From the NCBI RefSeq assembly GCF_002854065.1, contig NZ_CP024147.1: a stretch of DNA of 64,000 nt; one strand, 5' to 3'. The stretch's first letter is position 1. Every line of letters begins with the position of its first letter. Below are positions 710-45,749 of this stretch, in pieces. The stretch is from Escherichia coli (GTDB lineage Bacteria; Pseudomonadota; Gammaproteobacteria; Enterobacterales; Enterobacteriaceae). Under the pieces are notes generated by a model. It ran no database searches and was not told the DNA's origin. It saw nothing but the letters and a program-made list of their open reading frames with translations. The position numbers and the translations under genes were made by a program.

Positions 710-1591
710 TTAGCCACGACGTGTCGCCAGCCAGCAGAGCAGGGAACCGCCGCAGACCATCAGCGCGCCTTGCCAGAACGAGAACGACAGCGGGGCGCTG
801 AGCAGCACGGCTGCAAGCGCTGAGGAAAGTACGGGCGTAAAATACGAACCTACCGCCATAATGGTGACGTTGCCATGCAATATACCGACATTCCATGCAG
901 CATAAGCAAATCCTAAGGTAAATGCCGCAGAGATGAGTTTAATTATGACGGGCATGCTAAATACCATTTCTGGTTGTGGCGTGAGAAAATAGTAAACCCA
1001 CAGACTTGCTCCCGTTAGCAGGACAAAAACGGTAATTCCGTTAAATCCGCGTGCGTATTTATTCGTTACTGTGCAGTAGGCTGCCCAGATAAACGCACCA
1101 ATGAACGCCAGGAAATAACTCAATGGGCTGGTGGTGATATTATTGATGATTTCATCATAATGTAACCCATTGTCACCGCCTAACACCCAGCAGACGCCGA
1201 CGAGGGCTAATAATAATCCTGGTACAATCAGCCAGTTGGTTTTCTGACCATTAAACAGAATGGCAAAGAGAATTGTCAGGCTGGGCCACAGATAGTTCAC
1301 CATACCCACTTCAATCGCCTGATGACGGGTCGCCGCATACCCTAAGGAAAGCGCCAGACAGATTTCATAGCTGACGAATAACAGACTCCCGGCGAGTAAA
1401 TAGCCTTTCGGGATTTGCCGAATACGCGGAAATCCAACCGTGAAGATTAACAGCAGCCCGCTTAATGAATAGATAGCAGCTGCGCCACCGACCGGGCCGA
1501 GCCCCTCACTGACACCGCGAATCAATCCTACCATCGTGCTCCACAGGACGATCGCTATTAGCCCTATGAGCGTTGCTTTTTGTCGTGTCAT
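710..1591 (-). CDS. yddG: Aromatic amino acid / metabolite exporter, DMT (EamA) family
   Basis: 293-aa ORF, strongly hydrophobic with about 10 predicted TM segments; position divergent from fdnG as in K-12. Confidence 0.85.
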   Translation of the reverse strand: MTRQKATLIGLIAIVLWSTMVGLIRGVSEGLGPVGGAAAIYSLSGLLLIFTVGFPRIRQIPKGYLLAGSLLFVSYEICLALSLGYAATRHQAIEVGMVNYLWPSLTILFAILFNGQKTNWLIVPGLLLALVGVCWVLGGDNGLHYDEIINNITTSPLSYFLAFIGAFIWAAYCTVTNKYARGFNGITVFVLLTGASLWVYYFLTPQPEMVFSMPVIIKLISAAFTLGFAYAAWNVGILHGNVTIMAVGSYFTPVLSSALAAVLLSAPLSFSFWQGALMVCGGSLLCWLATRRG

Positions 1592-1744
1592 GCTCGCTGT
1601 TTTGTCTCTCTTGCCGTTAAAAATTAAGCTGAATTTTATAGCATTTTTTTAACTGGCCTGTCAGGCAGTGGTGCGTTTTTCTACCGCTATTGAGGTAGGT
1701 CAATTTGCGCAGGCGGATTATTTTGTGGCAAACACGTGTTCTTT

Positions 1745-1758
1745 TTGATTTCGCGCAA
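1745..1758 (+). promoter_or_regulatory. Putative FNR half-site-type box (TTGAT-N4-CGCAA) upstream of fdnG
   Basis: ttgatttcgcgcaa lies about 70 bp upstream of the fdnG ATG. fdnGHI is known to be anaerobically induced via FNR and NarL; the match to TTGAT-N4-ATCAA is partial. Confidence 0.3.
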
Positions 1759-1822
1759 AAAGATTCAGAATTTTACTGTTAGTTTCCTCGCGCAGTAATA
1801 CCCCTGAAAAAAGAGGAAAGCA

Positions 1823-4800
1823 ATGGACGTCAGTCGCAGACAATTTTTTAAAATCTGCGCGGGCGGTATGGCTGGAACAACAGTAGCGGCATTGGGCTTT
1901 GCCCCGAAGCAAGCACTGGCTCAGGCGCGAAACTACAAATTATTACGCGCTAAAGAGATCCGTAACACCTGCACATACTGTTCCGTAGGTTGCGGGCTAT
2001 TGATGTATAGCCTGGGTGATGGCGCGAAAAACGCCAGAGAAGCGATTTATCACATTGAAGGTGACCCGGATCATCCGGTAAGCCGTGGTGCGCTGTGCCC
2101 GAAAGGGGCCGGTTTGCTGGATTACGTCAACAGCGAAAACCGTCTGCGCTACCCGGAATATCGTGCGCCAGGTTCTGACAAATGGCAGCGCATTAGCTGG
2201 GAAGAAGCATTCTCCCGTATTGCGAAGCTGATGAAAGCTGACCGTGACGCTAACTTTATTGAAAAGAACGAGCAGGGTGTAACGGTAAACCGTTGGCTTT
2301 CTACCGGTATGCTGTGTGCCTCCGGTGCCAGCAACGAAACCGGGATGCTGACCCAGAAATTTGCCCGCTCCCTCGGGATGCTGGCGGTAGACAACCAGGC
2401 GCGCGTCTGACACGGACCAACGGTAGCAAGTCTTGCTCCAACATTTGGTCGCGGTGCGATGACCAACCACTGGGTGGATATCAAAAACGCTAACGTCGTG
2501 ATGGTGATGGGCGGTAACGCTGCTGAAGCGCATCCCGTCGGTTTCCGCTGGGCGATGGAAGCGAAAAACAACAACGATGCAACCTTGATCGTTGTCGATC
2601 CCCGTTTTACGCGTACCGCATCTGTGGCGGATATCTACGCGCCTATTCGTTCCGGTACGGACATTACGTTCCTGTCTGGCGTTTTGCGCTACCTGATCGA
2701 AAACAACAAAATCAACGCCGAATACGTTAAGCATTACACCAACGCCAGCCTGCTGGTGCGTGATGATTTTGCTTTCGAAGACGGTCTGTTCAGCGGCTAC
2801 GACGCTGAAAAACGCCAGTACGATAAGTCGTCCTGGAACTATCAGTTCGATGAAAACGGCTATGCAAAACGCGATGAAACACTGACTCATCCGCGCTGTG
2901 TGTGGAACCTGCTGAAAGAGCACGTTTCCCGCTACACGCCGGACGTCGTTGAAAACATCTGCGGTACGCCAAAAGCCGACTTCCTGAAAGTGTGTGAAGT
3001 GCTGGCCTCCACCAGCGCACCGGATCGCACAACCACCTTCCTGTACGCGCTGGGCTGGACGCAGCACACCGTGGGAGCGCAGAACATCCGTACTATGGCG
3101 ATGATCCAGTTGCTGCTCGGTAACATGGGTATGGCCGGTGGCGGCGTGAACGCATTGCGTGGTCACTCCAACATTCAGGGGCTGACTGACTTAGGCCTGC
3201 TCTCTACCAGCCTGCCAGGTTATCTGACGCTGCCGTCAGAAAAACAGGTTGATTTGCAGTCGTATCTGGAAGCGAACACGCCGAAAGCGACGCTGGCTGA
3301 TCAGGTGAACTACTGGAGCAACTATCCGAAGTTCTTCGTTAGCCTGATGAAATCTTTCTATGGCGATGCCGCGCAGAAAGAGAACAACTGGGGCTATGAC
3401 TGGCTGCCGAAGTGGGACCAGACCTACGACGTCATCAAGTATTTCAACATGATGGATGAAGGCAAAGTCACCGGTTATTTCTGCCAGGGCTTTAACCCGG
3501 TTGCGTCCTTCCCGGACAAAAACAAAGTGGTGAGCTGCCTGAGCAAGCTGAAGTACATGGTGGTTATCGATCCGCTGGTGACTGAAACCTCTACCTTCTG
3601 GCAGAACCACGGCGAGTCGAACGATGTCGATCCGGCGTCTATTCAGACTGAAGTATTCCGTCTGCCTTCGACCTGCTTTGCTGAAGAGGATGGTTCTATC
3701 GCTAACTCCGGTCGCTGGTTGCAGTGGCACTGGAAAGGTCAGGACGCGCCGGGCGAAGCGCGTAACGACGGCGAAATTCTGGCGGGTATCTACCATCATC
3801 TGCGCGAGTTGTACCAGGCCGAAGGTGGTAAAGGCGTAGAACCGCTGATGAAGATGAGCTGGAACTACAAGCAGCCGCACGAACCGCAATCTGACGAAGT
3901 AGCTAAAGAGAACAACGGCTATGCGCTGGAAGATCTCTATGATGCTAATGGCGTGCTGATTGCGAAGAAAGGTCAGTTGCTGAGTAGCTTTGCGCATCTG
4001 CGTGATGACGGTACAACCGCATCTTCTTGCTGGATCTACACCGGTAGCTGGACAGAGCAGGGCAACCAGATGGCTAACCGCGATAACTCCGACCCGTCTG
4101 GTCTGGGGAATACGCTGGGATGGGCCTGGGCGTGGCCGCTCAACCGTCGCGTGCTGTACAACCGTGCTTCGGCGGATATCAACGGTAAACCGTGGGATCC
4201 GAAACGGATGCTGATCCAGTGGAACGGCAGCAAGTGGACGGGTAACGATATTCCTGACTTCGGCAATGCCGCACCGGGTACGCCAACCGGGCCGTTTATC
4301 ATGCAGCCGGAAGGGATGGGACGCCTGTTTGCCATCAACAAAATGGCGGAAGGTCCGTTCCCGGAACACTACGAGCCGATTGAAACGCCGCTGGGCACTA
4401 ACCCGCTGCATCCGAACGTGGTGTCTAACCCGGTTGTTCGTCTGTATGAACAAGACGCACTGCGGATGGGTAAAAAAGAGCAGTTCCCGTATGTGGGTAC
4501 GACCTATCGTCTGACCGAGCACTTCCACACCTGGACCAAGCACGCCTTGCTCAACGCAATTGCTCAGCCGGAACAGTTTGTGGAAATCAGCGAAACGCTG
4601 GCGGCGGCGAAAGGCATTAATAATGGCGATCGTGTCACTGTCTCCAGCAAGCGTGGATTTATCCGCGCGGTGGCTGTGGTAACGCGCCGTCTGAAGCCGC
4701 TGAATGTAAACGGTCAGCAGGTTGAAACGGTGGGTATTCCAATCCACTGGGGCTTTGAGGGTGTCGCGCGTAAAGGTTATATCGCTAACACTCTGACGCC

Positions 4801-4870
4801 GAATGTCGGTGATGCAAACTCGCAAACGCCGGAATATAAAGCGTTCTTAGTCAACATCGAGAAGGCGTAA
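1823..4870 (+). CDS. fdnG: Formate dehydrogenase-N alpha subunit (molybdopterin, selenocysteine-containing); in-frame UGA at 2408..2410 read as Sec
   Basis: Two ORF-track pieces (1823..2410 and 2459..4870) are in the same frame, separated only by TGA. The N-terminus has a twin-arginine motif (SRRQFFK) and the Cys cluster CTYCSVGCG. Combined length is 1015 codons plus stop. Confidence 0.95.
2408..2450 (+). other. Selenocysteine UGA codon plus downstream SECIS-type region
   Basis: TGA at 2408..2410 is followed by cacggaccaacggtagcaagtcttgctccaac, which can form a short stem-loop (gcaag/cttgc) in the position expected for a bacterial SECIS. Exact structure not verified. Confidence 0.55.
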
Positions 4871-4882
4871 GGGGGCGAACAG

Positions 4883-5767
4883 ATGGCTATGGAAACGCAG
4901 GACATTATCAAAAGGTCCGCAACTAACTCCATCACGCCGCCTTCTCAGGTGCGTGATTACAAAGCAGAAGTCGCAAAACTTATCGACGTTTCCACCTGTA
5001 TCGGCTGTAAAGCCTGTCAGGTGGCGTGTTCGGAGTGGAACGACATCCGTGATGAAGTGGGGCACTGCGTCGGGGTTTACGATAACCCCGCCGATCTGAG
5101 CGCCAAGTCCTGGACGGTGATGCGCTTTAGCGAAACCGAACAGAACGGCAAGCTGGAGTGGCTGATCCGTAAAGACGGCTGTATGCACTGTGAAGATCCA
5201 GGCTGCCTGAAGGCGTGCCCGTCTGCTGGTGCAATCATTCAGTACGCTAACGGGATTGTCGATTTCCAGTCGGAAAACTGCATCGGCTGTGGTTACTGCA
5301 TTGCCGGGTGTCCGTTTAATATTCCGCGCCTCAACAAAGAGGATAACCGGGTATATAAATGCACGCTCTGCGTCGATCGCGTCAGCGTCGGCCAGGAACC
5401 GGCTTGTGTGAAAACCTGTCCGACCGGGGCTATCCACTTCGGCACCAAGAAGGAGATGCTGGAGCTGGCGGAACAGCGCGTGGCGAAACTGAAAGCGCGT
5501 GGTTACGAACATGCTGGCGTCTACAACCCGGAAGGGGTCGGTGGTACGCACGTTATGTACGTGCTGCATCACGCCGATCAGCCGGAGCTGTATCACGGTC
5601 TGCCGAAAGATCCGAAGATCGACACCTCGGTAAGCCTGTGGAAAGGCGCGTTGAAACCGCTGGCAGCGGCTGGCTTTATTGCCACTTTTGCAGGGTTGAT
5701 TTTCCATTACATCGGTATTGGCCCGAATAAGGAAGTGGACGATGACGAGGAGGATCATCATGAGTAA
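4883..5767 (+). CDS. fdnH: Formate dehydrogenase-N beta subunit (4x [4Fe-4S] ferredoxin-like, C-terminal TM anchor)
   Basis: 294-aa ORF with multiple CxxCxxCxxxCP motifs; starts 13 bp after fdnG stop. Confidence 0.95.
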
Positions 5768-6413
5768 GTCGAAAATGATTGTGCGCACCAAATTTATTGA
5801 TCGCGCCTGTCACTGGACCGTGGTGATTTGCTTCTTCCTGGTGGCGCTGTCCGGGATTTCGTTCTTCTTCCCGACGCTGCAATGGCTGACGCAAACCTTC
5901 GGTACGCCGCAGATGGGACGTATTTTGCACCCATTCTTCGGCATTGCGATTTTCGTCGCACTGATGTTTATGTTTGTGCGTTTTGTGCATCACAACATCC
6001 CGGATAAGAAAGATATTCCGTGGCTGTTGAACATTGTCGAAGTATTAAAAGGCAATGAGCACAAAGTGGCGGATGTCGGTAAGTACAACGCCGGGCAAAA
6101 GATGATGTTCTGGTCGATCATGAGCATGATTTTCGTGCTGTTGGTGACCGGGGTGATTATCTGGCGTCCGTACTTTGCGCAGTACTTCCCGATGCAGGTT
6201 GTCCGTTATAGCCTGCTGATCCACGCGGCTGCCGGTATCATCCTGATCCACGCCATCCTGATCCATATGTATATGGCATTCTGGGTGAAAGGATCGATTA
6301 AAGGGATGATCGAAGGGAATGTGAGCCGTCTCTGGGCGAAGAAACACCATCCGCGCTGGTATCGTGAAATCGAGAAGGCAGAAGCGAAAAAAGAGAGTGA
6401 AGAAGGGATATAA
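5760..6413 (+). CDS. fdnI: Formate dehydrogenase-N gamma subunit (cytochrome b556)
   Basis: Start chosen at ATG 5760 ([19 protein letters not shown]...), giving 217 aa. It overlaps the fdnH stop (ATGAGTAA). Hydrophobic, His-rich heme-binding helices. Confidence 0.9.
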
Positions 6414-6434
6414 TCTCTATTGAACTTTAAGCTG

Positions 6435-6466
6435 AAAATGGCGCTGTAAGAAGCGCCATTTTCATA
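6435..6466 (+). terminator. Rho-independent terminator of fdnGHI
   Basis: aaatggcgc-tgtaagaa-gcgccattt hairpin followed by ttcat T-run, 22 bp after the fdnI stop. Confidence 0.55.
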
Positions 6467-6469
6467 TTG

Positions 6470-6600
6470 TAGACAACGTAGGCTTTGTTCATGCCGGATG
6501 CGGCGTGAACGCCTTATCCGGCCTACAAACCGTTCAAATCCAATAGATTGCAGTGAACATGTAGGCCTGATAAGCGTAGAGCATCAGGCAATGTTGCATT
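6470..6600. repeat. REP/BIME-type extragenic palindromic repeats
   Basis: gccggatgcggcgtgaacgccttatccggcctac and gtaggcctgataagcgtagagcatcaggc are classic REP consensus-like palindromes in inverted orientation. Confidence 0.6.
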
Positions 6601-6640
6601 TGTCATCAGTTTCAAATGGCGCTTTATAAGGTGCCATTTT

Positions 6641-6925
6641 TTATTGCGTAACCAGACGGCGTAATCGCGACACATCCACCGTTTTTTCAGCCTCTGCCAG
6701 ACTCCAGGCGTTTTGCAGATTCAGCCACATTTGCGGCGAACTGCCGATCACCACGGAAAGTTTAATTGCCATTTCTGGCGTCAAAGCTGCTTTTCCGGTC
6801 AGCAATCGGCTTGCCGTTGAGGGCGCAATTTCCATTGCTCTGGCAAACTCGCGCAGGCTGACATTAAGTTCGTCCAGTGATTCCTGAATAATGTCCCCCG
6901 GGCGGGGATGATTGGCCATTTTCAT
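6641..6925 (-). CDS. yddM: HigA-like HTH (XRE-family) antitoxin-type regulator
   Basis: 94-aa ORF; HTH region [34 protein letters not shown]. Start ATG overlaps the stop of the upstream toxin ORF (ATGA). Confidence 0.8.
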
Positions 6926-7203
6926 CAGTGATAGTCCTCGTAATCCAGTATGTATGCATCGCCATTGACGAATTCAAATGTGATTCGCCAGTTGCCCGAG
7001 ACAGATATCGCCCAAATTCCATCGCGATCGCCGCTTAACGGGTGTAGTCGGTAACCGGGCATATCGATATCAGCAAGACAGCTTGCTGCATCAATCACAG
7101 CGAGTCGGTGGCGTAATCGTTTGACTTGCGTCGGTATAACGCCGGAGGTTTTGCCGAGAAGAAACAAGTCACGCAATCCCTTGTGTCTGAAATTCATTAT
7201 CAT
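6925..7203 (-). CDS. HigB-family (RelE/ParE superfamily) mRNA-interferase toxin, intact 92-aa ORF
   Basis: [22 protein letters not shown]...[40 protein letters not shown] matches my recollection of HigB (plasmid Rts1 killer protein) along its whole length, including the C-terminal GDAYIL-YEDYH. AAGGA ribosome-binding site upstream; toxin-first arrangement typical of higBA. Confidence 0.75.
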
Positions 7204-7215
7204 CTCTTCATCCTT

Positions 7216-7232
7216 GTTCCCTCGAAAGGAAC
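7216..7232. promoter_or_regulatory. Palindrome GTTCC-N7-GGAAC just upstream of the toxin ORF; candidate operator
   Basis: gttccctcgaaaggaac perfect 5-bp inverted repeat 13 bp upstream of the toxin start. Confidence 0.35.
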
Positions 7233-7388
7233 ACTATCACTATTGTTCCGTGCAGCGCAACAAATTTCGCTACGTTTTCGCGAATTGTGAGGGGAAAGAT
7301 GGCGGAGGAAAAGAAGAAGAATGAAATTGCGGAAAGCGTCTCGCAAAACAGGCTGCGACCCGAACATGGGAGTCGCAGCAAAGGCCTC

Positions 7389-8399
7389 TTAGCGACGGAA
7401 ATCAATCACCATACGGGCACGGATTTTGCCTTCTTCCATCTCGGTAAAGATGGTGTTGATGTCCGCTAACGGACGCAGGGCGACTTTCGGCACCACTTTG
7501 CCTTCGGCCGCAAACTGGAAGGCTTCGGTTAGATCCTGGCGCGTGCCGACCAGCGAACCGACCACTTCAATACCATCCAGCACAAGGCGTGGGATGTCCA
7601 GGCTCATAGATTCCAGCGGTAGACCGACAGCCACAACACGACCGCCTGCACGGACAGCATCAACTGCCGAGTTAAACGCCGCTTTAGCTACCGCTGTCAC
7701 CACCGCGGCGTGAGCGCCACCGGTTTTATCCTGCACAATTTTGGCGGCGTCTTCGGTGCGTGAGTTAATCGCTAAATCTGCGCCCATTTCGGTTGCCAGT
7801 TTTAACTGCTCATCATTGACATCAATGGCGATCACTTTCGCGTTAAAGACATTCTTCGCGTATTGCAGGGCGAGGTTACCCAGACCGCCAAGACCGTAGA
7901 TAGCAATCCACTGACCGGGACGAATTTTTGACAGTTTAACGGCTTTGTAGGTGGTGACCCCCGCACAGGTAATGCTGCTGGCCGCCGCCGAGTCCAGACC
8001 ATCTGGCACTTTTACCGCGTAATCGGCGACCACGATGCACTCTTCCGCCATCCCGCCATCAACGCTGTATCCGGCATTTTTAACTGAACGGCAGAGCGTT
8101 TCGTTACCACTGTTACAGTATTCGCAATGACCGCATCCTTCGTAAAACCACGCCACGCTGGCACGATCGCCTGGTTTTAATGAAGTAACACCAGGGCCAA
8201 CTTCTGCCACCACACCGATGCCTTCATGGCCCAGAATTACGCCAGTTTTGTCACCAAAATCGCCATTCTTAACATGAAGATCGGTATGACATACACCACA
8301 ACACTCCATTTTCAGCAGGGCTTCGCCATGTTTCAGTGAGCGCAGTGTTTTATCCGTAACGTCAACATGATGATCCTTCGTAACAACTGCAGCCTTCAT
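7389..8399 (-). CDS. adhP: Zn-dependent alcohol dehydrogenase, propanol-preferring
   Basis: Start taken at [11 protein letters not shown] (336 aa). GHEGIGVV and CGHCEYC zinc-ADH motifs. Confidence 0.9.
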
Positions 8400-8532
8400 A
8401 GTTCCTCCTTTTCGGATGATGTTCTGCATAGCAGGTGAGGCAAATGAGATTTATTCGCCACTACCCAGTATGGATGAGATCTGAAAAAGGGAGAGGGAAA
8501 TAGCCCGGTAGCCTTCACTACCGGGCGCAGGC

Positions 8533-10230
8533 TTAGATGGAGGTACGGCGGTAGTCGCGGTATTCGGCTTGCCAGAAATTATCGTCAATGGCTTGTTGCA
8601 AAGCTTCGGCAGACGTTTTCACCGCCACGCCTTGCTGCTGCGCCATTTTGCCAACCGCAAACGCAATTGCGCGGGAGACTTTCTGAATATCTTTTAGTTC
8701 CGGTAGTACCAGACCTTCGCCGTTCAGCACCAATGGTGAATACTGCGCCAGCGTCTCACTTGCCGACATCAGCATCTCATCGGTGATACGTGACGCGCCG
8801 GAAGCAATAACACCCAGCCCGATGCCTGGGAAAATAAAGGCGTTGTTACACTGGGCGATAGGGTAGATTTTATCTTTCCATACCACTGGATTAAACGGGC
8901 TGCCCGTGGCGACCAGCGCGTTACCTTCGGTCCAGGCGATAATGTCCTGCGGTGTGGCTTCCACGCGTGACGTCGGGTTAGACAGTGGCATCACGATCGG
9001 ACGCGGACAGTGTTTATGCATCTCACGGATGATCTCTTCCGTAAACAGCCCGGTCTGTCCTGAGACGCCAATCAGAATATCTGGTTTTACATTGCGCACC
9101 ACATCCAGCAGTGACAACACATCGCTGTCGGTATCCCAGTCACTGAGGTTTTCGCGCTTCTGCACCAGTTTGGTCTGGAAAGGCAGCAGGTTCGGCATCT
9201 TGTCGGTCAGCAAGCCAAAGCGATCGACCATAAAGACTTTCTGCCGCGCCGCTTCCTCGCTTAATCCTTCGCGCTGGGTCTGGGCGATGATCATTTCGGC
9301 AATGCCGCATCCCGCTGAACCTGCGCCAAGGAAGACGATTTTTTTCTCGCTTAACTGACCACCTGCCGCGCGGCTTGCTGCGATCAGGGTGCCGACTGTT
9401 ACCGCCGCAGTGCCCTGAATGTCATCGTTAAAGGAACAAATTTCATTGCGATAGCGGTTAAGTAACGGCATCGCATTTTTTTGTGCGAAGTCTTCAAACT
9501 GCAACAGCACGTCCGGCCAGCGTTGTTTCACAGCCTGGATAAATTCATCAACGAATTCATAGTATTCGTCGTCAGTGATACGCGGATTACGCCAGCCCAT
9601 ATACAGCGGATCGTTAAGCAGCTGTTGGTTGTTGGTGCCGACATCCAGCACCACCGGAAGGGTATACGCCGGGCTGATGCCGCCACAGGCGGTATAGAGC
9701 GACAGTTTACCGATCGGAATGCCCATCCCGCCGATGCCCTGGTCACCAAGCCCCAGAATACGTTCACCGTCAGTCACCACAATCACTTTAATATTATGGT
9801 TCGGCACGTTTTGCAGAATATCGTCCATATTGTGGCGGTTCTGGTAAGAGATAAACACGCCGCGTGAACGGCGGTAGATCTCAGAAAAACGCTCACAGGC
9901 TGCGCCGACGGTTGGGGTATAAATAACAGGCATCATCTCATCAAGATGATTGTTTACCAGACGGTAGAAGAGGGTTTCGTTGGTGTCCTGGATGTTACGC
10001 AGGTAGATGTGTTTGTCGATTTCGGTTTTGAATCCCTGATACTGGATCCATGCTCGTTCCGCTTGTTCTTCGATGGTTTCGACCACTTCCGGCAGTAACC
10101 CCAGCAGGTTGAAGTTACGGCGTTCTTCCATGCTGAAGGCACTGCCTTTATTCAACAACGGAAATTCCAGCAGTACAGGGCCAGCGTAAGGGATATAAAG
10201 CGAACGCTGTTTTTTTGTTTTTGGTTCCAT
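8533..10230 (-). CDS. maeA: NAD-dependent malic enzyme
   Basis: Start taken at [18 protein letters not shown] (565 aa); malic enzyme family motifs present. Confidence 0.9.
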
Positions 10231-10320
10231 GTCACTCACTCTTTTTTGAATATCCATCCCTGGGGGCTTTTATCGTCTTTGCTTTACCGCCAGGGCGTCG
10301 GCCCCAAGTATAAAGCAGAT

Positions 10321-10355
10321 AAAAACAAAAACACCATTGCGCAGGCAATGGTGTT
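10321..10355 (-). terminator. Rho-independent terminator of sra
   Basis: On the minus strand: acaccattgc-ctgcgc-gcaatggtgt hairpin followed by UUUUUGUUUUU. Confidence 0.5.
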
Positions 10356-10385
10356 TAATCGTCATTGAGGACTGATGGTTATGAA

Positions 10386-10523
10386 TTACTTTTCAGCGGG
10401 GCGTTTTCTGCCGGTTGGGTTATTTACCACGCTAGATTTGTCACCTTCGGTAACTATTTTGCGCTGGTTAGATATTTTATGGTCCAGTCCAAGAATATGA
10501 CGTGCCTGACGGTTCGATTTCAT
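10386..10523 (-). CDS. sra: Stationary-phase ribosome-associated protein (30S protein S22), 45 aa
   Basis: Minus-strand translation [45 protein letters not shown]. Below the 60-aa ORF-track cutoff, so read by hand. Confidence 0.85.
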
Positions 10524-10624
10524 TTTAACTCCTCAATCCTGTTGCTAGTTTTAAGGACAACATCGCCGTAGCGAAGAAACACGTGCTAAACCCCTAAATT
10601 AGGTTGCCGATCAAGCATAGCACC

Positions 10625-10840
10625 TTAAAGCGTAGGGTGCTGGCCACTGACCACATAATTGATCGTTTGCTGGTAGATATCACTGAGGATGTCGTTATCA
10701 GAAGCTTCCACCCATTTGGTCAGCTCCATGAGAATGTCATCTTCAGTGACAACACCGTGCTCTGCCAGAAGGCCTTGCTCAATGGCATTAACCAGAGCGG
10801 GTTCTGCTGTTGAATTTTCTGCCTGATAATAAGTAAACAT
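10625..10840 (-). CDS. bdm: Biofilm-dependent modulation protein, 71 aa
   Basis: Start taken at MFTYYQAENSTAEP within the 92-aa track ORF. Confidence 0.8.
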   Translation of the reverse strand: MFTYYQAENSTAEPALVNAIEQGLLAEHGVVTEDDILMELTKWVEASDNDILSDIYQQTINYVVSGQHPTL

Positions 10841-11185
10841 AGTGATTCTCCGTGTCTGTGTATTTATGGTGTCTGCTACGGATCGCAGATTTATAAAGCA
10901 CATTCAGCATGGCAAATATTTGCCGCTTCGTTGTTGAGATTAGTCCTGGTTGATGATTTTTATATTTTAACCCTATGATATTGATAGGTATTATTATTGT
11001 GGTGAGTTGATTGATATTGATGCAATATCTCTTGAGATATATATTCCCGGTTATCTATTGTGGGAATTTAATTTAAGTGCAGAAGTAATATTTTCTGCCG
11101 GATTTTATTCGGAATATCCTGCTTATCCTCGTGCTGTTTCTCACGTAGTCTATAATTTCCTTTTTAAGCCCACAGGAGAGCAACA
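10841..11185. promoter_or_regulatory. AT-rich divergent bdm/osmC promoter region
   Basis: 345-bp AT-rich intergenic region between divergent bdm and osmC. osmC is known to have tandem stress-responsive promoters here; individual sites not resolved. Confidence 0.4.
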
Positions 11186-11617
11186 ATGACAATCCATAAG
11201 AAAGGTCAGGCACACTGGGAAGGCGATATCAAACGCGGGAAGGGAACAGTATCCACCGAGAGTGGCGTGCTGAACCAACAGCCGTATGGATTTAACACGC
11301 GTTTTGAAGGCGAAAAAGGAACCAACCCTGAAGAACTGATTGGCGCAGCGCATGCCGCATGTTTCTCAATGGCGCTTTCATTAATGCTGGGGGAAGCGGG
11401 ATTCACGCCAACATCGATTGATACCATCGCCGATGTGTCGCTGGATAAAGTGGATGCCGGTTTTGCGATTACGAAAATCGCACTGAAGAGTGAAGTTGCG
11501 GTGCCGGGTATTGATGCCTCTACCTTTGACGGCATCATCCAGAAAGCAAAAGCAGGATGCCCGGTCTCTCAGGTACTGAAAGCGGAAATTACGCTGGATT
11601 ACCAGTTGAAATCGTAA
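11186..11617 (+). CDS. osmC: Osmotically inducible peroxiredoxin (OsmC/Ohr family)
   Basis: 143-aa ORF with the conserved Cys pair (AAHAACFSMAL ... KAKAGCPVSQ). Confidence 0.9.
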   Translation: MTIHKKGQAHWEGDIKRGKGTVSTESGVLNQQPYGFNTRFEGEKGTNPEELIGAAHAACFSMALSLMLGEAGFTPTSIDTIADVSLDKVDAGFAITKIALKSEVAVPGIDASTFDGIIQKAKAGCPVSQVLKAEITLDYQLKS

Positions 11618-17697: not shown

Positions 17698-17894
17698 TGC
17701 CGGGATAAGCGCCAGAATGCTGGCTTAAAGTTATATTTTTTAACTTTTGATCAACATTTGTGCAGCGTAGTGCAGTTTTGGTGCAAGAGGGGAAGTTAAG
17801 GAAGGAATCTCCCGGAATCGTAGCTGAAATCACAGTATTTAAGTGACAGTGTCACGTTAAATGAAAACCCGCGAGTGCGGGCGAGAGGAATTTG

Positions 17895-37097: not shown

Positions 37098-37544
37098 AAA
37101 TGTTCCTCTTCTTATTGTACTTAATTCCAAAGTAATTTTACGAAGAGAAATAAGTGGATGTAAGTGAAGTTAGTCACATAAAGAGATAGCAGATTTAGCT
37201 AAAAAAAGGGAAATAACAGTCCATAAAGCGTTGACATTACTTTCTGTTCTACTAAGTAATTTCTCGCCGATAAACAACTAATCTATTGATATTTAATAAA
37301 TTATTGTATTTTACTGACAAAATGCCGAATTGAGATCATAAATAATCATGCAATAGGTTATGCAAATGCATAAATATGTGATGAATGTCACTTATTTATT
37401 TCAATAAATATATCGCCTAAAAACAACGCGGGGCAAGGAATGGCTGCCCCATTTAATTCTTACGTAGCGTGTGTGGTTGACTACCCGTTAGCAAATAATC
37501 AAATAGCTAAAGCACTCATCGTGTTGTCCGGTAATGACTCCAAC

Positions 37545-38048
37545 TTATTGATAGTGTTTTATGTTCAGATAATGCCCGATGACTTTGTCATGCAGCTCCA
37601 CCGATTTTGAGAACGACAGCGACTTCCGTCCCAGCCGTGCCAGGTGCTGCCTCAGATTCAGGTTATGCCGCTCAATTCGCTGCGTATATCGCTTGCTGAT
37701 TACGTGCAGCTTTCCCTTCAGGCGGGATTCATACAGCGGCCAGCCATCCGTCATCCATATCACCACGTCAAAGGGTGACAGCAGGCTCATAAGACGCCCC
37801 AGCGTCGCCATAGTGCGTTCACCGAATACGTGCGCAACAACCGTCTTCCGGAGCCTGTCATACGCGTAAAACAGCCAGCGCTGGCGCGATTTAGCCCCGA
37901 CGTATCCCCACTGTTCGTCCATTTCCGCGCAGACGATGACGTCACTGCCCGGCTGTATGCGCGAGGTTACCGACTGCGGCCTGAGTTTTTTAAATGGCGG
38001 AAAATCGTGTTGAGGCCAACGCCCATAATGCGGGCGGTTGCCCGGCAT
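37545..38048 (-). CDS. insB: IS1 InsB (transposase C-terminal part)
   Basis: 167-aa [19 protein letters not shown]... typical of IS1 InsB. A6C-type frameshift heptamer (minus strand AAAAAAC, plus 37985..37991) sits at the insA/insB junction. Confidence 0.9.
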
Positions 38049-38242
38049 CCAACGCCATTCATGGCCATATCAATGATTTTCTGGTGCGTACCGGGTTGAG
38101 AAGCGGTGTAAGTGAACTGCAGTTGCCATGTTTTACGGCAGTGAGAGCAGAGATAGCGCTGATGTCCGGCAGTGCTTTTGCCGTTACGCACCACCCCGTC
38201 AGTAGCTGAACAGGAGGGACAGCTGATAGAAACAGAAGCCAC
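37967..38242 (-). CDS. insA: IS1 InsA (transposition repressor / transposase N-terminus)
   Basis: 91-aa [27 protein letters not shown]... with zinc-finger Cys pairs. Confidence 0.9.
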
Positions 38243-38275
38243 TGGAGCACCTCAAAAACACCATCATACACTAAA

Positions 38276-39037
38276 TCAGTAAGTTGGCAGCATCACCGTG
38301 TTGTCCGTGTTCATACCGGTGTGCCTTTGACAACGGTACTCCTTAGAAACTCTCTTCGGACTGTTGCCGAAATGTTTGCGGAACGCATAAATAAAATAAG
38401 ATGTACTGGCATAACCACATTGTTCGGCAATTTTATTGACTGAACCTTCTACGCGTATCAAATTTTTTGCGTGCTGCATTCTGGCATCTAAAAGAATCTG
38501 TGAGAATGTCGTTTGCTCTTGCTTAAGTTTTTTCTTCAACAGGCTTTCACTGATGTACAGGCAGTCACAAATATCTTTCAGCTTCCATGGGTGCGCCAGC
38601 TTCATGTTGACAATATTTCTCACTTTCCCGGAAACGGATAGCACACCGTTAGTTAATAGTGTAATGAAACCTTTGCATGCGGCAAAAATAGACAGGCAAG
38701 AAAAAAGCAAAAGTTCTGAAAAATTATGATGATTGCGTTCTTCCGAGTTGAGATAAGCAATCATTTCATTAAGCAATCCAGTCGGTACATTAGAAGCACG
38801 TAAAAACTTCGCAGGAACAGGCACCGTCACTGTCTGGATGTTAGTGCATTGTAGATATTTTTTAATGGTATTTTCATTAAATCCGATTTCTTTAAAATGC
38901 CGCTCATAAGGTTCAAAATGCGTACGAACAGCGTTATCTACCATCAGGATCTCGCCGTCAGAGAAGGCGTAATCTTTATCTAAAATGTTAGCGTTGAAGG
39001 CATGATGAATAAATATAACAGAACAAACGAGCGACAT
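38276..39037 (-). CDS. ydeO: AraC-family acid-resistance regulator whose last 6 codons are replaced by IS1-encoded sequence
   Basis: 253-aa ORF. Reading frame crosses the right TSD into the IS1 end, ending …HTGMNTDNT-VMLPTY*. Skipping IS1 and one TSD copy, the uninterrupted frame would end …DNT-MSALAI*. Confidence 0.8.
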   Translation of the reverse strand: MSLVCSVIFIHHAFNANILDKDYAFSDGEILMVDNAVRTHFEPYERHFKEIGFNENTIKKYLQCTNIQTVTVPVPAKFLRASNVPTGLLNEMIAYLNSEERNHHNFSELLLFSCLSIFAACKGFITLLTNGVLSVSGKVRNIVNMKLAHPWKLKDICDCLYISESLLKKKLKQEQTTFSQILLDARMQHAKNLIRVEGSVNKIAEQCGYASTSYFIYAFRKHFGNSPKRVSKEYRCQRHTGMNTDNTVMLPTY

Positions 39038-39556: not shown

Positions 39557-41836
39557 TTAATTTGATGGTTCTAATTCAACCGGAATACTTTTATAGCCAG
39601 GAATGCCACTTAATGGATCGTGGTTATCAAGTGTTAGCATGTGATTCGATTCTGGAAAATAGGTCACCAGTGAGCGGTCAGCCATAGGGTAAATGACCAC
39701 TTTTAATCTATCCATGCGGCGTGAGCTGCGCTTACCGTCTGGCGTAAGCGCAATAAGATTAACTCTTTCGCCGTTTTTTACACGGCAAATTTTAGCTTGT
39801 TTAGCACTCATAAAGACCACATCTCGTTGACCGAATACCCCTCGATAACGATCATCCATACCATAAATCGTCGTGTTGTACTGATCGTGACTGCGTACTG
39901 TCGCCATGACCAGCTTACTGTTAAACGCTGAAGAGGGATCTTCTAACAGCCCTTTGCTGGTAATGAAATTAGCCTTACCTGACGGCGTCATCCAGCGCCT
40001 TTCAGCAGCTGCATTTATCAGGTGAAAACCTCCAGGATGTCGGATGCGCTGGTTATAATCGGCGAACTCTGGCAGCACAGCTTCAATGTCATTGCGAATG
40101 CGATCATAATCTTCCACCAGATACTCCCAGGCTACCACGCTCTGGGGTAGTGCTGCCTGCGCGATTCCCGCGACCACTGCACACTCTGATTTCAGCATTA
40201 CATCGGCGGGTTTTAACACGCCACGCGAGGCATGAATCATCGACATTGAATCCTCAACGGTTACCGCCTGCGCACCGCTTTTTTGCATGTCAATCTCGCT
40301 ACGTCCCAGAACCGGCAGAATATAGCTATGCCGTGCGGTCAGCAGATGAGAGCGGTTAAGCTTAGTGGCTACGTGTACCGCCAGATCTAATTGCGTTAAC
40401 GGTACAGCGCTCGCTTCCCGATCTGGCATTGCCAGTGCAAAGTTGCCCCCCATGCAGATCAATGCTCGAGCCTGCCCTGAACATATTGCTTGCATGCTGG
40501 CAATTGCAGCATGTCCAGGTGCTTGAGGTGGTGTGAAGCCATAGCGCTCACCCAGGCGAGCCAGAAACTCTGCAGACGGTTTCTCGGTGATACCGACGGT
40601 TCGGTCGCCCTGTACATTAGAGTGGCCACGTAGTGGGCAGATACCCGCACCAGGCTTGCCAATGTTACCTTTCATCAACAGCAGATTGACCAGTTGCTGT
40701 ACATTCTGGGTACCATGTTCGTGCTGAGTGATCCCCATTCCGTAACAGATAATGGTGCGTTCGGCAGCGGCATATGCATCAGCCAGTTCGGCGATTTGTG
40801 TCTGACTTAGTCCAGAAATACGTTCGATATCTTTCCACTCGGAATTGAGAACGTCACGGCGTAGCTCGTCAAAGCCGACGGTATGCGTTTGAATAAATTC
40901 GTCATCCAGCAATGAGGGCCGACCTGCGGCACTTGCAGCATCATCGCGCTCAATTAACAGGCGCATCATCCCCTTGAGCAACGCCATATCGCCACCAATG
41001 CGCACGTTGTAGTAGGCACTGGCCAACTGAGTCTCAGAGTTCGTCAGCATTTCAAACGGGTTTTGCGGTGCGGTAAATCGCTCCAGGCCACGTTCCTGTA
41101 GAGGATTGATGGCGATCATTTTCGCTCCCCGTTTCACTAAAGCGCGCAACGAAGTCAGCATGCGAGGGTGGTTTGTACCAGGGTTATGCCCAATGCAAAT
41201 GACTAAATCGCACTTCTCAAAGTCTTCCAGCAACACGGTCCCTTTACCTACACCGATACTCGCTGCCAAACCCACGCTTGTCGGTTCATGGCACATGTTG
41301 GAGCAGTCGGGAAAGTTATTGCTCCCGTATTCACGGGCAAAAAGCTGATAAAGAAAGGCAGCTTCATTGGAAGTGCGGCCCGAAGTATAGAATTCAACCT
41401 GATTGGGATCACTATAGCTTTGAAGGCGTGCGCCAATTTCATTGAAAGCTTGTTGCCAGCTTAATGGCTTGTAACAGTCGCTGACGGCATCATATTTCAA
41501 AGGCTGAGTGAGTCGCCCCGCAGCCTCAAGCTCGTGGTCTCCCCAGGTAAGTAATGATTGAACCGTATTCTCAGCAAAGAAAGAGGCGTTTACCTGCTTA
41601 TCCGTGACTTCCCAGGCGATTGCTTTTGCGCCGTTTTCACAAATGTCGAATGACGCACTGTGCTTAGGATCTGGCCATGCACAACCCGGACAGTCAAAGC
41701 CCTCTGGCTTATTCATGTCAAACATGGCAATAACATCCTGGCGTATATCCATCTGCTTACGTACTGCATTCGCTACGGATTTAACAGCACCCCAACCACC
41801 GGCAGCACCCTGGTAGGATTCAATTTTTTTCTTCAT
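39557..41836 (-). CDS. ydeP: Molybdopterin oxidoreductase (FdhF-like, acid-resistance associated)
   Basis: 759-aa ORF with an N-terminal Cys cluster and molybdopterin-binding domains. Confidence 0.9.
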
Positions 41837-42079
41837 CTACTTATCCTGTGTGGAAATGAATTATTAGGATTTGTAATAGCGATGATGCACAGTACATACA
41901 AAGGGATTATCGCCAACATGGATATATAAGAGTAGGGGACTACTCTCTTTCTATTTTTAATCTATTATCGTTAAACCATAGATTAAATACGATAAGGTAA
42001 GCATCATCTCTCATAGTGTTTAAATTAACATATTTTTCAATATAAAAAATAAGACTCTGGCTTCAATTGTGCGCGGATT

Positions 42080-42097
42080 TTCTTACAGGTGTAGGAT
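42080..42097 (-). promoter_or_regulatory. EvgA-type box upstream of ydeP
   Basis: TTCTTACA-GG-TGTAGGAT, about 245 bp upstream of the ydeP ATG; same half-site pattern as the safA site. Confidence 0.5.
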
Positions 42098-42169
42098 AAT
42101 AGCTTTCACAAAATAATTATCCGCGCAATTTTCGTGAATGGAGCGCATAGACTAAGGTCAAAATCACAA

Positions 42170-43084
42170 TTATTCATAGATAAAAGTGACACCAATGACT
42201 GACTGGACGGTTCCGGCTGAAACTTTGTTCCCTGTTTGTCCATAGGTTGCGCTTAAACCCAGAGGTACTTTGCTTTTATTTACTGTCCCCAGGGAGACAT
42301 TTTCTCCCGTAGCCAGTATTTTTCCATTACGCATCAGAGAGACACCCACTCCCGATGCTTTTGTTGCATCTGGTGCTGTGTTAGCAAACACTTGTTTAGC
42401 ACTGTCAGTGGTAGCACCCGAAAGATAAAATGAGAGCTTTTGTTCACTTGAGCAATATACGCCAAGGGGGATTTCTGCGCTTCCAGGAAAGTCCGGGAGA
42501 TTCACGGTGACATTACGACTATCAACAGTGCAGCCGCCTGTTGGCATAACAACACTGTTATTTGAAATAATATTCCACGTAAAATTACGCGGATTTCCGC
42601 TTCCTAACGTGGCAATTTTATACATATGAATACGGGCAATAACTTCCCCGGCTTTTATGACAACTCCACCGGCCGCCCCGACTGGGGTAATATAGAGTTT
42701 TAACGGTAATGGCATCGGTGTCTTATCACCAATATCCAATACGTTGGTATTTGTCGTCAACGGGAAGGGGTAGGTCACATTATTCCAGTACAGCGATCCT
42801 TTATATGACTGTAGAGAGCCTGCGAAAGCTGAGCCTTGTACCAGGTTTATATGATCAGTGTCGTACCAGCCGCCGTAATCATTCCAGCAACTTATATGCT
42901 GAGACAAGTCTACAACCAGATTCTGGCCCGGCTGTATTACAGGGTCGAGATTAACATAAACAGAGGTTGTACCAGCTCCAATACTTGACCCGCCATCGAC
43001 ATTACAACTGAAGGCAAAAACTTTGCCTGCCATTAATAGAAGATAAATACCGAACAGGACCTTTATACTGATTGTTTTACCCAT
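42170..43084 (-). CDS. ydeQ: FimH-like fimbrial tip adhesin
   Basis: 304-aa ORF with signal peptide, aligning along its length with FimH as I recall it (…[14 protein letters not shown]…, C-terminal …GVTFIYE). Confidence 0.75.
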
Positions 43085-43143
43085 GATATATCCTAAGGTT
43101 AAAAAATTGATTTAAAAAGAAGGCTAAGAAAATCGAATCGATG

Positions 43144-43647
43144 TTATTGCCAGGTGTAGATCACATTGATTAGCGCCTCGATCGTTCCCTGGCTTGCGTT
43201 TCCATTCACCGTGATAGCTCTTGCCTTAAGTGGAAACTGTGCATTACGAGTGATCTCATCAACAATAACCGTTTTGCTATCGCCATTTTTTAACGTCGCA
43301 TCCTGGTCATCCCTCAGCTCTATCTGAATATTTTCGGCAGTACCTTCATTTGTGTAATAACCCGTATTGTCAGTTGAACCTGTCACGATTGCCGTCACTG
43401 CACTTGTTTCAGCCGGACAATCGGTTAATGACAAAGTAATATTGTGCCAGCCAGATGCAGAACCAGGTTGTTGCAGATTGCGCGTATAAAGATCCCCGAG
43501 ATTAACGTTAGCTTCTTTGGTTTGAATAGTGCAGGGTTTAGCGACTACCCGACCATTAACAGTGATAGTGACATCGGCGACCTGGAGAGTTGCTGTGAAT
43601 AACGCGCAAAACGTAGCTAACAGGAACCTCTTGTGAAGTCTTTTCAT
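43144..43647 (-). CDS. ydeR: FimG-like minor fimbrial subunit
   Basis: 167-aa ORF with signal peptide and pilin C-terminus (…NVIYTWQ). Confidence 0.75.
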   Translation of the reverse strand: MKRLHKRFLLATFCALFTATLQVADVTITVNGRVVAKPCTIQTKEANVNLGDLYTRNLQQPGSASGWHNITLSLTDCPAETSAVTAIVTGSTDNTGYYTNEGTAENIQIELRDDQDATLKNGDSKTVIVDEITRNAQFPLKARAITVNGNASQGTIEALINVIYTWQ

Positions 43648-43782
43648 ATCTGACTCTGATTATTGAAATTCAAGGGTAAAGGTTGCCGAAGCCCTCACCA
43701 GTCCCGGATTGACGGACTTCTGAGTTGACTTCAGACGAGCGGAGTAAGGCAAAATATTGTTCTGTTCTGGTACCAGTGGGAT

Positions 43783-44874
43783 CTATAATGTCTGAATACT
43801 GCCGTCTGCCTCTTTTATGGTTACTTGCAGATCACCACCATTGGCCGCAGAGTTGATATCATCAATAGTAAAAGGGCCGGGTGGAACAGTAGTCTGATAA
43901 ACATCGTATCCGTTCTGTTTTACACTCACTTGTGCGGTGCCACGGGCAATACCATGAATCACCGGAGCGAAACCATGTTGGCTATCGGGCAACATCGCTT
44001 CTGTTGAATTTATTTTGAGGCCACGAAAGTTCACACTATCAAAAATATCGCCATCGGTATAACTATCACCTACCGTTAACCGTGAGCGTAAGGGAATAAT
44101 GTCACGTTCAGCCGACGTATTGATATGCTGCCATTTATTGCTGTCAGATGAATTGCTACTCCCACTGTTATAACTCCACGTTGAGTTATCGCGTAGTCGC
44201 CAACTACCAATGTTGATGCCACTCTGTAAATTCAAATATGCATAGTTTGATTTTCCTGCATTATGGTTACTACGATTATTAATAGAATTACCATTAAAAC
44301 TATAGTTTAGAAGCCCTGCATTTATTCCTTCTTCCCACAGATCAGGAGAAACATAGCCGCGAGCCATTCTGCCAACATAAATTTGCGGAACGGAGAGTGA
44401 CAGATGTTGCTGACCAACATCAAACTCAGTTGATGCGTCGACCAAACGATCCTGAAGTGGTGTGCATGCGCTGTTGTCCGGCACATGTTTTTCTGCTGAA
44501 TGTTCCTTATTGTCTAATAACGCAGATTTTTTTATGCCAAGACTGACAAGAAGATCTGTACTCAGGCATGGGATGAGATCTGCATTATTATCATCTGCAA
44601 TAAAAGTAATATCCCGACTAGTCATAAATTCGTCGTTCAAATAAATGTCGATCCGATATGTACCAGGTGGTGCCTCGCGTCCCTTAGTAAAGGCGGATAA
44701 ATCGACAGATTCAGCAAGATCATTGCTTAAAAACCGTGGATTAAAATAATACTCTGCGTCAACGGGAAATACCGCAGTTGCTAAGCCAAGGGCAATGGTA
44801 AGCCGTACAAAGCGAGGCAGTAGTAACACCTGATGCAAACGATATGCCTTAAATGCGGCACGAAAGGCTGTCAT
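43783..44874 (-). pseudogene. ydeT: Fimbrial usher, N-terminal ~363-codon fragment only
   Basis: Matches my recollection of the FimD N-terminal and plug region (…YFNPRFL…GINAGLLNYSF…RLRDNSTWSYN…GDLQVTIKEADGS) and then stops. The ~135 bp before ydeR encode only a pilin-like C-terminal tail (…ASATFTLEFQ*) in the same frame. The gene symbol is tentative. Confidence 0.7.
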
Positions 44875-44915
44875 TATTAATTCCGATTGAGTTTATTATT
44901 AATTAGGTCACTGGC

Positions 44916-45629
44916 TTACTGCATGGTTGCCTTAATACGCGGAGTTAATGCGCCGTAATCATTGATCGTCTGAAAACTGATATCCCCGGTGGCAGCATGC
45001 GGGATATCCACCGATACTTCACCTTTTGGCGGCACCATGGTGTTTGGGAGATTGCTATTTCCTGCTTTCATATTTGTTACGGTAATGAAGTAGGGCGTTG
45101 GATTAATAAGAGTGAGTTTGCTACCGCTGCGACGAAACCGAAGCATTGCAGGCGCTTCTTCAGGTGCCATTGCCAGGTTCGTGGGGCGATAAAACATTTT
45201 TATGCGGCTAATAATTGCCAGCTGTAATGTATTCTCATTCTTCTGGTCTTTTTCCATAGCAGGAATAGCTTTAACATTCACCCAGAACAGGCTTTCACGG
45301 TCGCCTGGTAACTGATGATTAGTGGCGTTGATTATCCGCAGCGTATTCTCTTTTTTACCTTGCATGGAAAAAAGCGGTGGGGTAATGACAAACTGGGTGT
45401 CTTTTTGGTCACCTGCATTTTCTATCTGAAGTGTTGATGGAAAGAGGGCGTGCTCATTTGCACGCGGTTTACCAGCTTGAGTCTTCAACGCTGGGAAGAT
45501 GCGGCAAACGGCAAATCTGCATACCAGCCAGCCTATATCCGGCATGCACAGGCCAATTATGAAAGAGGAGAGGCTTAAGTTCTGGAACCCTGAACGAATA
45601 ACGACTACCGGAAAATCACTTCGTATCAC
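44916..45629 (-). pseudogene. PapD/FimC-like periplasmic chaperone remnant with degenerate N-terminus
   Basis: C-terminal two-thirds align well with my recollection of FimC (…FVITPPLFSMQGKKENTLRI…DRESLFWVNVKAIP…INDYGALTP). The N-terminal ~60 residues lack a recognizable signal peptide. No major-subunit gene upstream: only ~120 bp to hipA. Confidence 0.6.
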
Positions 45630-45749
45630 TCAGATGCGATTTAACATAATATACATTATGCGCACCAACATAAACCAAGGAAGAATCTAGTCGTTGGCGG
45701 TCATGATTTGTCCTGCTCATTAACAACGACCAAACCCCATATCTTACTC

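Follow-up and report, generated by a model that had tools for sequence, protein, structure and literature searches.

The 64,000-nucleotide stretch of Escherichia coli DNA analyzed here (contig NZ_CP024147.1; hereafter the window) carries, at positions 42170 to 45629 of the minus strand, the span that we treat as the remnant of the F9 (yde/fml) chaperone-usher fimbrial operon. We conclude that this region is very probably a nonfunctional F9 allele of a single lineage, located beside the chromosome dimer resolution site dif, in which two deletions have reduced a six-gene operon. Two of the genes are intact (ydeQ and ydeR), three are represented by fragments (ydeS and the usher and chaperone genes), and the major-subunit gene is gone; the locus is therefore a disrupted f9 allele and not a working member of the family. 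This reading is carried by (i) the deletion map, (ii) the domains lost from the usher and the chaperone, and (iii) the recurrence of the same allele in independent genomes.

Two deletions have shrunk the six-gene operon to full-length ydeQ and ydeR plus three fragments. The major-subunit gene and the H-NS-controlled promoter have been lost, as have the export signal and Arg8 of the chaperone, the greater part of the usher barrel, and the two C-terminal usher domains. Loss of F9 function would then be expected from the established biology of FimC/PapD chaperones and FimD/PapC ushers: since the promoter and the major subunit are missing and neither an exportable chaperone nor a full usher is left, assembly of an F9 fiber should be impossible.

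An F9 operon reduced by two deletions

The region belongs to F9 by both position and sequence. It is located between ydeP and hipBA, in the order ydeP, ydeQ, ydeR, remnants, dif, hipA, and hipB, and the same flanks have been described for f9 (Wurpel et al. 2014, PMC3966885); its DNA is 99.4 to 99.7% identical to intact f9. All genes in window positions 39557 to 52420 are on the minus strand, and the order of transcription is hipB, hipA, a 237-codon chaperone-like open reading frame (ORF), a 363-codon usher-like ORF, ydeR, ydeQ, and ydeP. When positions 41500 to 47500 were compared by megablast with 5,426 complete E. coli genomes, 5,425 of them matched. The best match, strain PS10-3, aligned to the query as three segments distributed over ~9.8 kb (Table 1), and the locus of this strain, which contains an intact six-gene operon, was used as the reference (L001). 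The PS10-3 operon comprises, in this order, the genes for the major subunit, the chaperone, and the 883-amino-acid (aa) usher, followed by ydeS, ydeR, and ydeQ; yneL, an AraC-type helix-turn-helix (HTH) pseudogene, sits between the f9 operon and hipA.

Two deletions separate the three colinear blocks, and in total 3,755 bp of f9 operon DNA is missing relative to the intact locus. Deletion 1 takes out ydeS codons 1 to 136 and usher codons 364 to 883. Comparison of the flanks revealed 0 bp of microhomology at this junction; the join itself makes a TAG at 43783-43785 that terminates the usher ORF, and the usher and ydeS frames coincide there by chance (...SIQTL*IPLVPEQ...ASATFTLEFQ*). Deletion 2, with 1 bp of microhomology at its junction, takes out chaperone codons 1 to 67, the major-subunit gene, 650 bp 5' of the major-subunit gene, and most of yneL. 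The same comparison found no insertion sequence (IS) or IS end at either junction, where the flanks join cleanly, and the remnants contain no later frameshifts or stops. We encountered no evidence contradicting the deletion map. An earlier reading of this DNA (the original prediction) had proposed such an alignment to intact operons; it named the operon type correctly, as the alignment to PS10-3 bears out, but what it described as an operon "frozen mid-decay" is better described as the product of two clean deletions.

Table 1. Features of the F9 remnant and its flanks, colinear blocks, and deletions mapped on the PS10-3 reference locus (L001)
Feature	Window position	Strand	L001 position	Basis or remark
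ydeQ, F9 tip adhesin (FimH/FmlH-like), 304 aa, full length	42170..43084	-		ORF, Pfam, reference alignment
ydeR, FimG-like minor subunit, 167 aa, full length	43144..43647	-		ORF, Pfam Fimbrial family
ydeS (FimF-like) remnant, last 40 codons and stop	43660..43782	-		Reference alignment, weak Pfam match
Deletion 1 junction, 1,981 bp	43783..43784		3785-5765	BLAST block edges, flank comparison
Usher remnant, codons 1-363 of 883	43783..44874	-		ORF, Pfam, PDB alignment
Chaperone ORF, 237 aa, GTG start	44916..45629	-		ORF
Chaperone remnant, codons 68-236 and stop	44916..45426	-		DNA block, Pfam, SfaE homology
Deletion 2 junction, 1,774 bp	45426..45427		7409-9182	BLAST block edges, flank comparison
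Chance 5' extension of the chaperone ORF	45427..45629	-		Residual yneL (45427-45478) out of frame and dif-side spacer
dif, XerCD chromosome dimer resolution site, 28 bp	45639..45666	-		Exact match, between remnant and hipA
hipA, 440 codons, intact, 3' end toward the remnant	45750..47072	-		ORF; colinear with annotated hipA of L001
Colinear block 1	41500-43783		1501-3784	99.7% identity
Colinear block 2	43784-45426		5766-7408	99.5% identity
Colinear block 3	45426-47500		9183-11256	99.4% identity
Deletion allele 21EVA			6659-9284	
Deletion allele PCP06021			4038-9284	
Deletion allele B-JRPT-4119			8338-9000	

The adhesin and FimG-like genes had been called intact, and both are indeed full length. 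YdeQ matches its counterpart in PS10-3 at 303 of 304 residues and has a FimH_man-bind (FimH-type lectin) domain (E = 6e-78) and a Fimbrial (pilin) domain in Pfam. YdeR agrees with the intact-operon reference at 165 of 167 residues. The mature FimG chain (3jwn_G) aligns from YdeR residue 24, which places the substitution A23V (ydeR codon 23, window position 43580) at position -1 of the signal peptide cleavage site predicted by FimG homology. V23 is the derived state within the lineage and is also found in strain CUWW06, introduced below, and six other relatives; at this position, it may be consequential.

Between the usher remnant and ydeR, the original prediction had seen a pilin-like tail (...ASATFTLEFQ) but no intact FimF-like gene, and both observations hold. 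The tail (coding positions 43663 to 43782) consists of 40 codons whose products are identical (40/40) to YdeS residues 137 to 176, with a weak Pfam Fimbrial match at profile positions 118 to 151, and retranslation of 43648-44200 yielded no intact pilin ORF of ~176 aa. A major-subunit gene was found in the window remnant neither among the ORFs nor by alignment to the intact operon. The hipA stop codon (45750-45752) is 120 nt from the GTG of the chaperone ORF; this distance is as originally given, but hipA does not start there, since it is its 3' end that faces the remnant, and hipBA transcription runs toward the fimbrial remnant.

Losses in the usher, the chaperone, and the promoter

The usher ORF stops after 363 codons, as had been noticed, although it corresponds to 41% of the 883-aa protein rather than to a third. 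Its product (43786-44874) matches reference residues 1 to 363 at 360 of 363 positions. The signal peptide and the N-terminal domain are retained, as are the initial strands of the barrel and most of the plug; the C-terminal 59%, with the remainder of the barrel and the two C-terminal domains, is lost. The domain assignments agree with this picture. The PapC_N profile (the N-terminal chaperone-subunit binding domain) is matched over its full length (positions 1 to 146 of 146; E = 1e-45), the Pfam Usher profile only at positions 1 to 145 of 549; for the 363-aa ORF, Pfam gave no match to PapC_C or any other C-terminal usher domain. In structural alignments, the fragment corresponds to residues 2 to 311 of the 833 residues of mature FimD and breaks off within the plug, at residue 74 of the 90 in the Caf1A plug structure. 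The barrel and the plug are thus both incomplete, and the C-terminal domains are absent.

In the chaperone ORF, true homology starts at residue 67/68, equivalent to residue 35 of mature SfaE. PapD_N is matched only at profile positions 44 to 125 of 126, and PapD_C (PF02753) is present at ORF residues 176 to 229 (E = 9e-12). The intact chaperone precursor (236 codons) starts MQTTRTPYSISFMATVLLLLLFACHSTVANA/AVALGATRVIYP..., and the deleted part includes ...HSTVANA/AVALGATRVIYP; the remnant is thus without the signal peptide and without mature residues 1 to 36, including Arg8. This arginine is conserved in PapD/FimC chaperones, where it anchors the C terminus of the pilin. Neither a Sec signal peptide, the new N terminus being judged by eye, nor a complete domain 1 with Arg8 is present. 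The lack of a clear signal peptide had been recognized at the outset, when the N terminus was described as degenerate. However, the first 68 codons show no similarity to a chaperone N terminus or to the yneL reading frame: the odd N terminus is unrelated DNA, out-of-frame yneL and spacer sequence brought in by deletion 2, as judged from the sequence, and not a decayed chaperone.

The f9 transcription start site (TSS) has been mapped in strain CFT073 to 251 nt 5' of the major-subunit start codon, with the -10 element CATAAT and the -35 element TAGTCG, and the promoter is repressed by H-NS (PMC3966885). The L001 homologue is TAGTCA-N18-CATAAT, in which the -35 element is a one-base variant at the expected position and the TSS is a G at 8783, exactly 251 nt 5' of the major-subunit gene. 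This promoter (8819-8783) falls inside deletion 2, and it has thus disappeared along with the major pilin gene, as the original prediction had stated. The exact CFT073 motif TAGTCG-N18-CATAAT is absent from the window but equally absent from the intact L001. A scan of positions 42000 to 47400 gave fewer promoter and terminator sites than shuffled sequences and is hence of little weight; it showed no terminator-like site between hipA and the remnant, and residual transcription, if any, would be read-through from hipBA.

Recurrence of the allele in public genomes

Both junctions recur in at least 11 independent public assemblies, which are 99.9% identical. Among the 5,426 complete genomes, junction 1 was found in two, CUWW06 (NZ_CP182139.1) and 100416 (NZ_CM128593.1), whereas a contiguous match to junction 2 was found in CUWW06 only; 100416 also has junction 2, with an extra 256-bp deletion alongside it in the chaperone remnant. 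These two complete RefSeq chromosomes come from Thailand and Gambia. Their junctions are identical to those of the window, and the common sequence is 99.9% identical. Unlike the window, CUWW06 has tandem filamentous prophages at dif and an IS1 that separates ydeQ from ydeR, and 100416 has, in addition to its further chaperone-remnant deletion, a prophage at dif. No single-deletion intermediates were detected among the 5,426 complete genomes; other matches covering at least 80% of the junction 2 probe were different, smaller deletions.

Nine further assemblies (NCBI, ENA, and Logan), retrieved by exact-protein look-up, hold both junctions without the IS1 or the prophages of CUWW06 and 100416. 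In eight of them, the gene order is exactly that of the window, with 99.9% identity over 12.6 kb. The ninth, L012 (Logan SRR26134126), has undergone a further deletion, equivalent to window positions 41448 to 43331, that eliminates ydeQ entirely, together with the 5' end of ydeP and the 3' part of ydeR; its hipA carries two premature stop codons. The exact 363-aa usher remnant occurs on 121 public contigs and a 209-aa form of the chimeric chaperone on 132. Exact-match scans of metagenome contigs of the Joint Genome Institute (JGI) found neither junction.

The original prediction would have been weakened by operons of the same structure annotated as functional. RefSeq instead marks ydeS and the usher pieces as pseudogenes in CUWW06 and 100416. 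The individual protein records are less consistent. RefSeq and its annotation pipeline, PGAP, treat the 209-aa chimera of CUWW06 as an ordinary protein; this signal-less sequence (window 44919-45545) is listed publicly as "MULTISPECIES: fimbria/pilus periplasmic chaperone," and the public names of the 363-aa stub include "type 1 fimbrial major subunit FimA" and "T7SS usher family protein." These names are annotation errors and are misleading.

The remnant lies at the replication terminus

The gap between hipA and the remnant, in which the original prediction had overlooked dif, contains a single exact match to GGTGCGCATAATGTATATTATGTTAAAT, the E. coli dif sequence as given in PMC3025954; there is no other in the window and none in shuffled sequences. 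The K-12 dif is likewise located in the yneL-hipA intergenic region. The FtsK-orienting polar sequence (KOPS) GGGNAGGG is found in 8 of 8 cases on the plus strand to the left of dif and in 3 of 3 cases on the minus strand to the right, so that the polarity switches at dif. From the exact dif and this switch in polarity, the window can be said, on sequence evidence, to span the replication terminus, with f9 as the first operon beside dif. Exact matches to the matS consensus (GTGACRNYGTCAC) occur twice, at 17843-17855 and 61778-61790, where none is expected by chance, and are consistent with the Ter macrodomain; no TerC-like sequence was found in the window.

The colinearity of CUWW06 and 100416 with the window stops at dif (window positions 45668 and 45665, respectively), after which filamentous-phage genes follow. 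This break provides indirect support that XerCD/FtsK recombination may act at the window dif. The prophages (L003 6394-12300 and L005 for the two tandem copies of CUWW06; L004 7777-12300 for 100416) are inovirus-like and encode Zot, a pIV/GspD-like secretin, DUF2523, and a II/X replication protein.

Origin of the deletions and residual function

As to mechanism, we infer that the deletions arose by illegitimate, homology-independent end joining or by replication slippage. The proximity of the terminus suggests another origin, namely, deletions specific to dif or the terminus, made by imprecise excision of dif-integrated filamentous prophages (integrative mobile elements exploiting Xer [IMEX]) or by repair of terminus breaks at division. 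Junction 2 is 212 bp from dif, and filamentous prophages occupy dif in two lineage members (as tandem copies in CUWW06); the DNA 5' of f9 is reported to be variable (PMC3966885), and five independent alleles, with right endpoints 100 to 700 bp from dif, all lose the dif-proximal end of f9. Nevertheless, neither junction is at dif or a dif-like sequence (the window has a single dif-like site), deletion 1 is internal to the operon at 1.9 kb from dif, and the prophages are missing from nine lineage members; we therefore regard this origin as unlikely. Endpoint clustering near dif was considered as a test and set aside, since it is expected anyway: loss of dif is counterselected, and only ~860 bp separates the major-subunit gene from dif. 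The broader proposal that the promoter-proximal half of f9 is a recurrent deletion hotspot, driven by dif-prophage traffic or terminus-break repair, is quite doubtful; if true, it would explain both the independent F9 losses in many E. coli lineages and the variable region 5' of f9.

Deletions made by IS elements, through IS1 adjacent deletion or IS-IS recombination, are very unlikely. IS1 has been active in the lineage, as seen from the window copies (37531-38298 and 52455-53221) and from the copy between ydeQ and ydeR in CUWW06, but both processes leave one IS copy behind, and no IS or IS end is left at the junctions. Regarding the window copies themselves, the first (768 bp, between ydeN and ydeO) is 100% identical to the IS1B of CUWW06 and absent from all 10 of the 10 relatives for which DNA spanning the site was fetched. 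The second, identical copy is just 5' of an ECSE_1600-family autotransporter ORF (47549-52420) of 1,623 codons, compared with 1,806 aa in relatives, and probably cut off the 5' end of this gene.

Several caveats attach to the loss of function. This loss is a step that we infer, ydeQ and ydeR are still open and almost unchanged, and the fragments could be transcribed, there being no terminator-like site after hipA. The lack of secondary frameshifts and stops in the remnants may mean that the deletions are recent. Moreover, among 12 lineage members, single-nucleotide polymorphism (SNP) density and nonsynonymous bias are alike in the remnants, ydeP, and hipA: the coding SNPs are nonsynonymous in 8 of 8 cases in ydeQ, ydeR, and the usher remnant, in 5 of 5 cases in ydeP, and in all cases in hipA. 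These SNPs offer no separate evidence that selection on the remnant has been relaxed, because flanking ydeP and hipA show the same pattern, which reflects very recent divergence or sequencing noise and not the drift of pseudogenes.

One could go further and suppose that the remnant is partly functional, with YdeQ and YdeR assembled by FimC/FimD-like machinery or with the chaperone and usher fragments acting as decoys. The 99% identity of ydeQ and ydeR to the intact-operon copies, the open remnant ORFs, the listing of the 209-aa chimera by PGAP/NCBI as an ordinary chaperone, the missing terminator, and the closeness of YdeR to FimG and of the usher remnant to FimD are all in line with such a role. 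Yet the mapped promoter is deleted, the chaperone fragment is devoid of a signal peptide, of the first 43 of 126 PapD_N positions, and of Arg8, the usher fragment stops within the plug, and ydeR of the window carries A23V at position -1 of the cleavage site. In addition, L012 went on to lose ydeQ and part of ydeR, which are thus dispensable. A partial function is consequently highly improbable, and a nonfunctional allele shaped by two deletions remains the preferred reading. That the locus is an assembly or sequencing artifact, as can happen when misjoins mimic microhomology-free deletions, deserves virtually no credence, since the same junctions are shared by independent assemblies, namely, two complete RefSeq chromosomes and nine further NCBI, ENA, and Logan assemblies.

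Significance and comparison with known systems

The feature is a real but ordinary pseudogenized operon: disrupted f9 operons have been published, and annotated public genomes already contain the identical allele. In a survey of 42 genomes, f9 DNA was present in all, intact in 60%, and disrupted in 17, including every phylogroup A strain (Wurpel et al. 2014, PMC3966885). In agreement with that survey, at least 80% of the f9 operon is present in 3,645 of the 5,426 complete genomes and less of it in the rest, the K-12-type class with 51% of the operon being common. Besides that of the window, we mapped at least four independent f9 deletion alleles, in K-12, 21EVA, PCP06021, and B-JRPT-4119 (Table 1). 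In PCP06021 (L016 7922-13866), the f9 deletion extends to a diverged segment (89% identity) on the dif-proximal side; beyond this segment comes foreign DNA, possibly an island located at dif or close to it, with genes for a DEAD/DEAH helicase and a sigma-factor-like HTH protein. The present case thus extends the known series of disrupted f9 operons by one allele with exactly mapped deletions and confirms several independent losses of F9. It also has a practical side: typing by ydeQ alone or by the usher 5' end alone would miscall this lineage as F9 positive, and the two junction sequences could be used as lineage markers.

Comparison with three known systems places the allele as follows. (i) The K-12 genes ydeQ-ydeR-ydeS-ydeT' (b1502 to b1505) and the yneL pseudogene occupy the same locus between ydeP and dif/hipBA. 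The outcome is shared, in that K-12 too lacks the major subunit, the chaperone, the promoter, and a complete usher, whereas ydeQ and ydeR are intact. However, K-12 has undergone one deletion (L001 5432-8710) and keeps ydeS, which the original prediction had placed in that strain, together with the C-terminal 408 codons of the usher (ydeT'). The window, in contrast, bears two deletions; ydeS is lost, but the N-terminal 363 codons of the usher and the C terminus of the chaperone persist. The usher halves kept by the two alleles are complementary, and the alleles therefore arose independently. (ii) In the intact F9 (Fml) operons of CFT073 (c1931 to c1936), O157:H7, and PS10-3, the segments retained in the window have the same order and orientation, but these operons have six genes and a promoter, as opposed to the disrupted remnant of the window. 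(iii) The remnants also align to FimD, FimC/SfaE, and FimG of type 1 fimbriae (fimAICDFGH), with E values from 1e-53 to 1e-132; this paralogue belongs to a different operon at a different locus and serves as a structural reference only.

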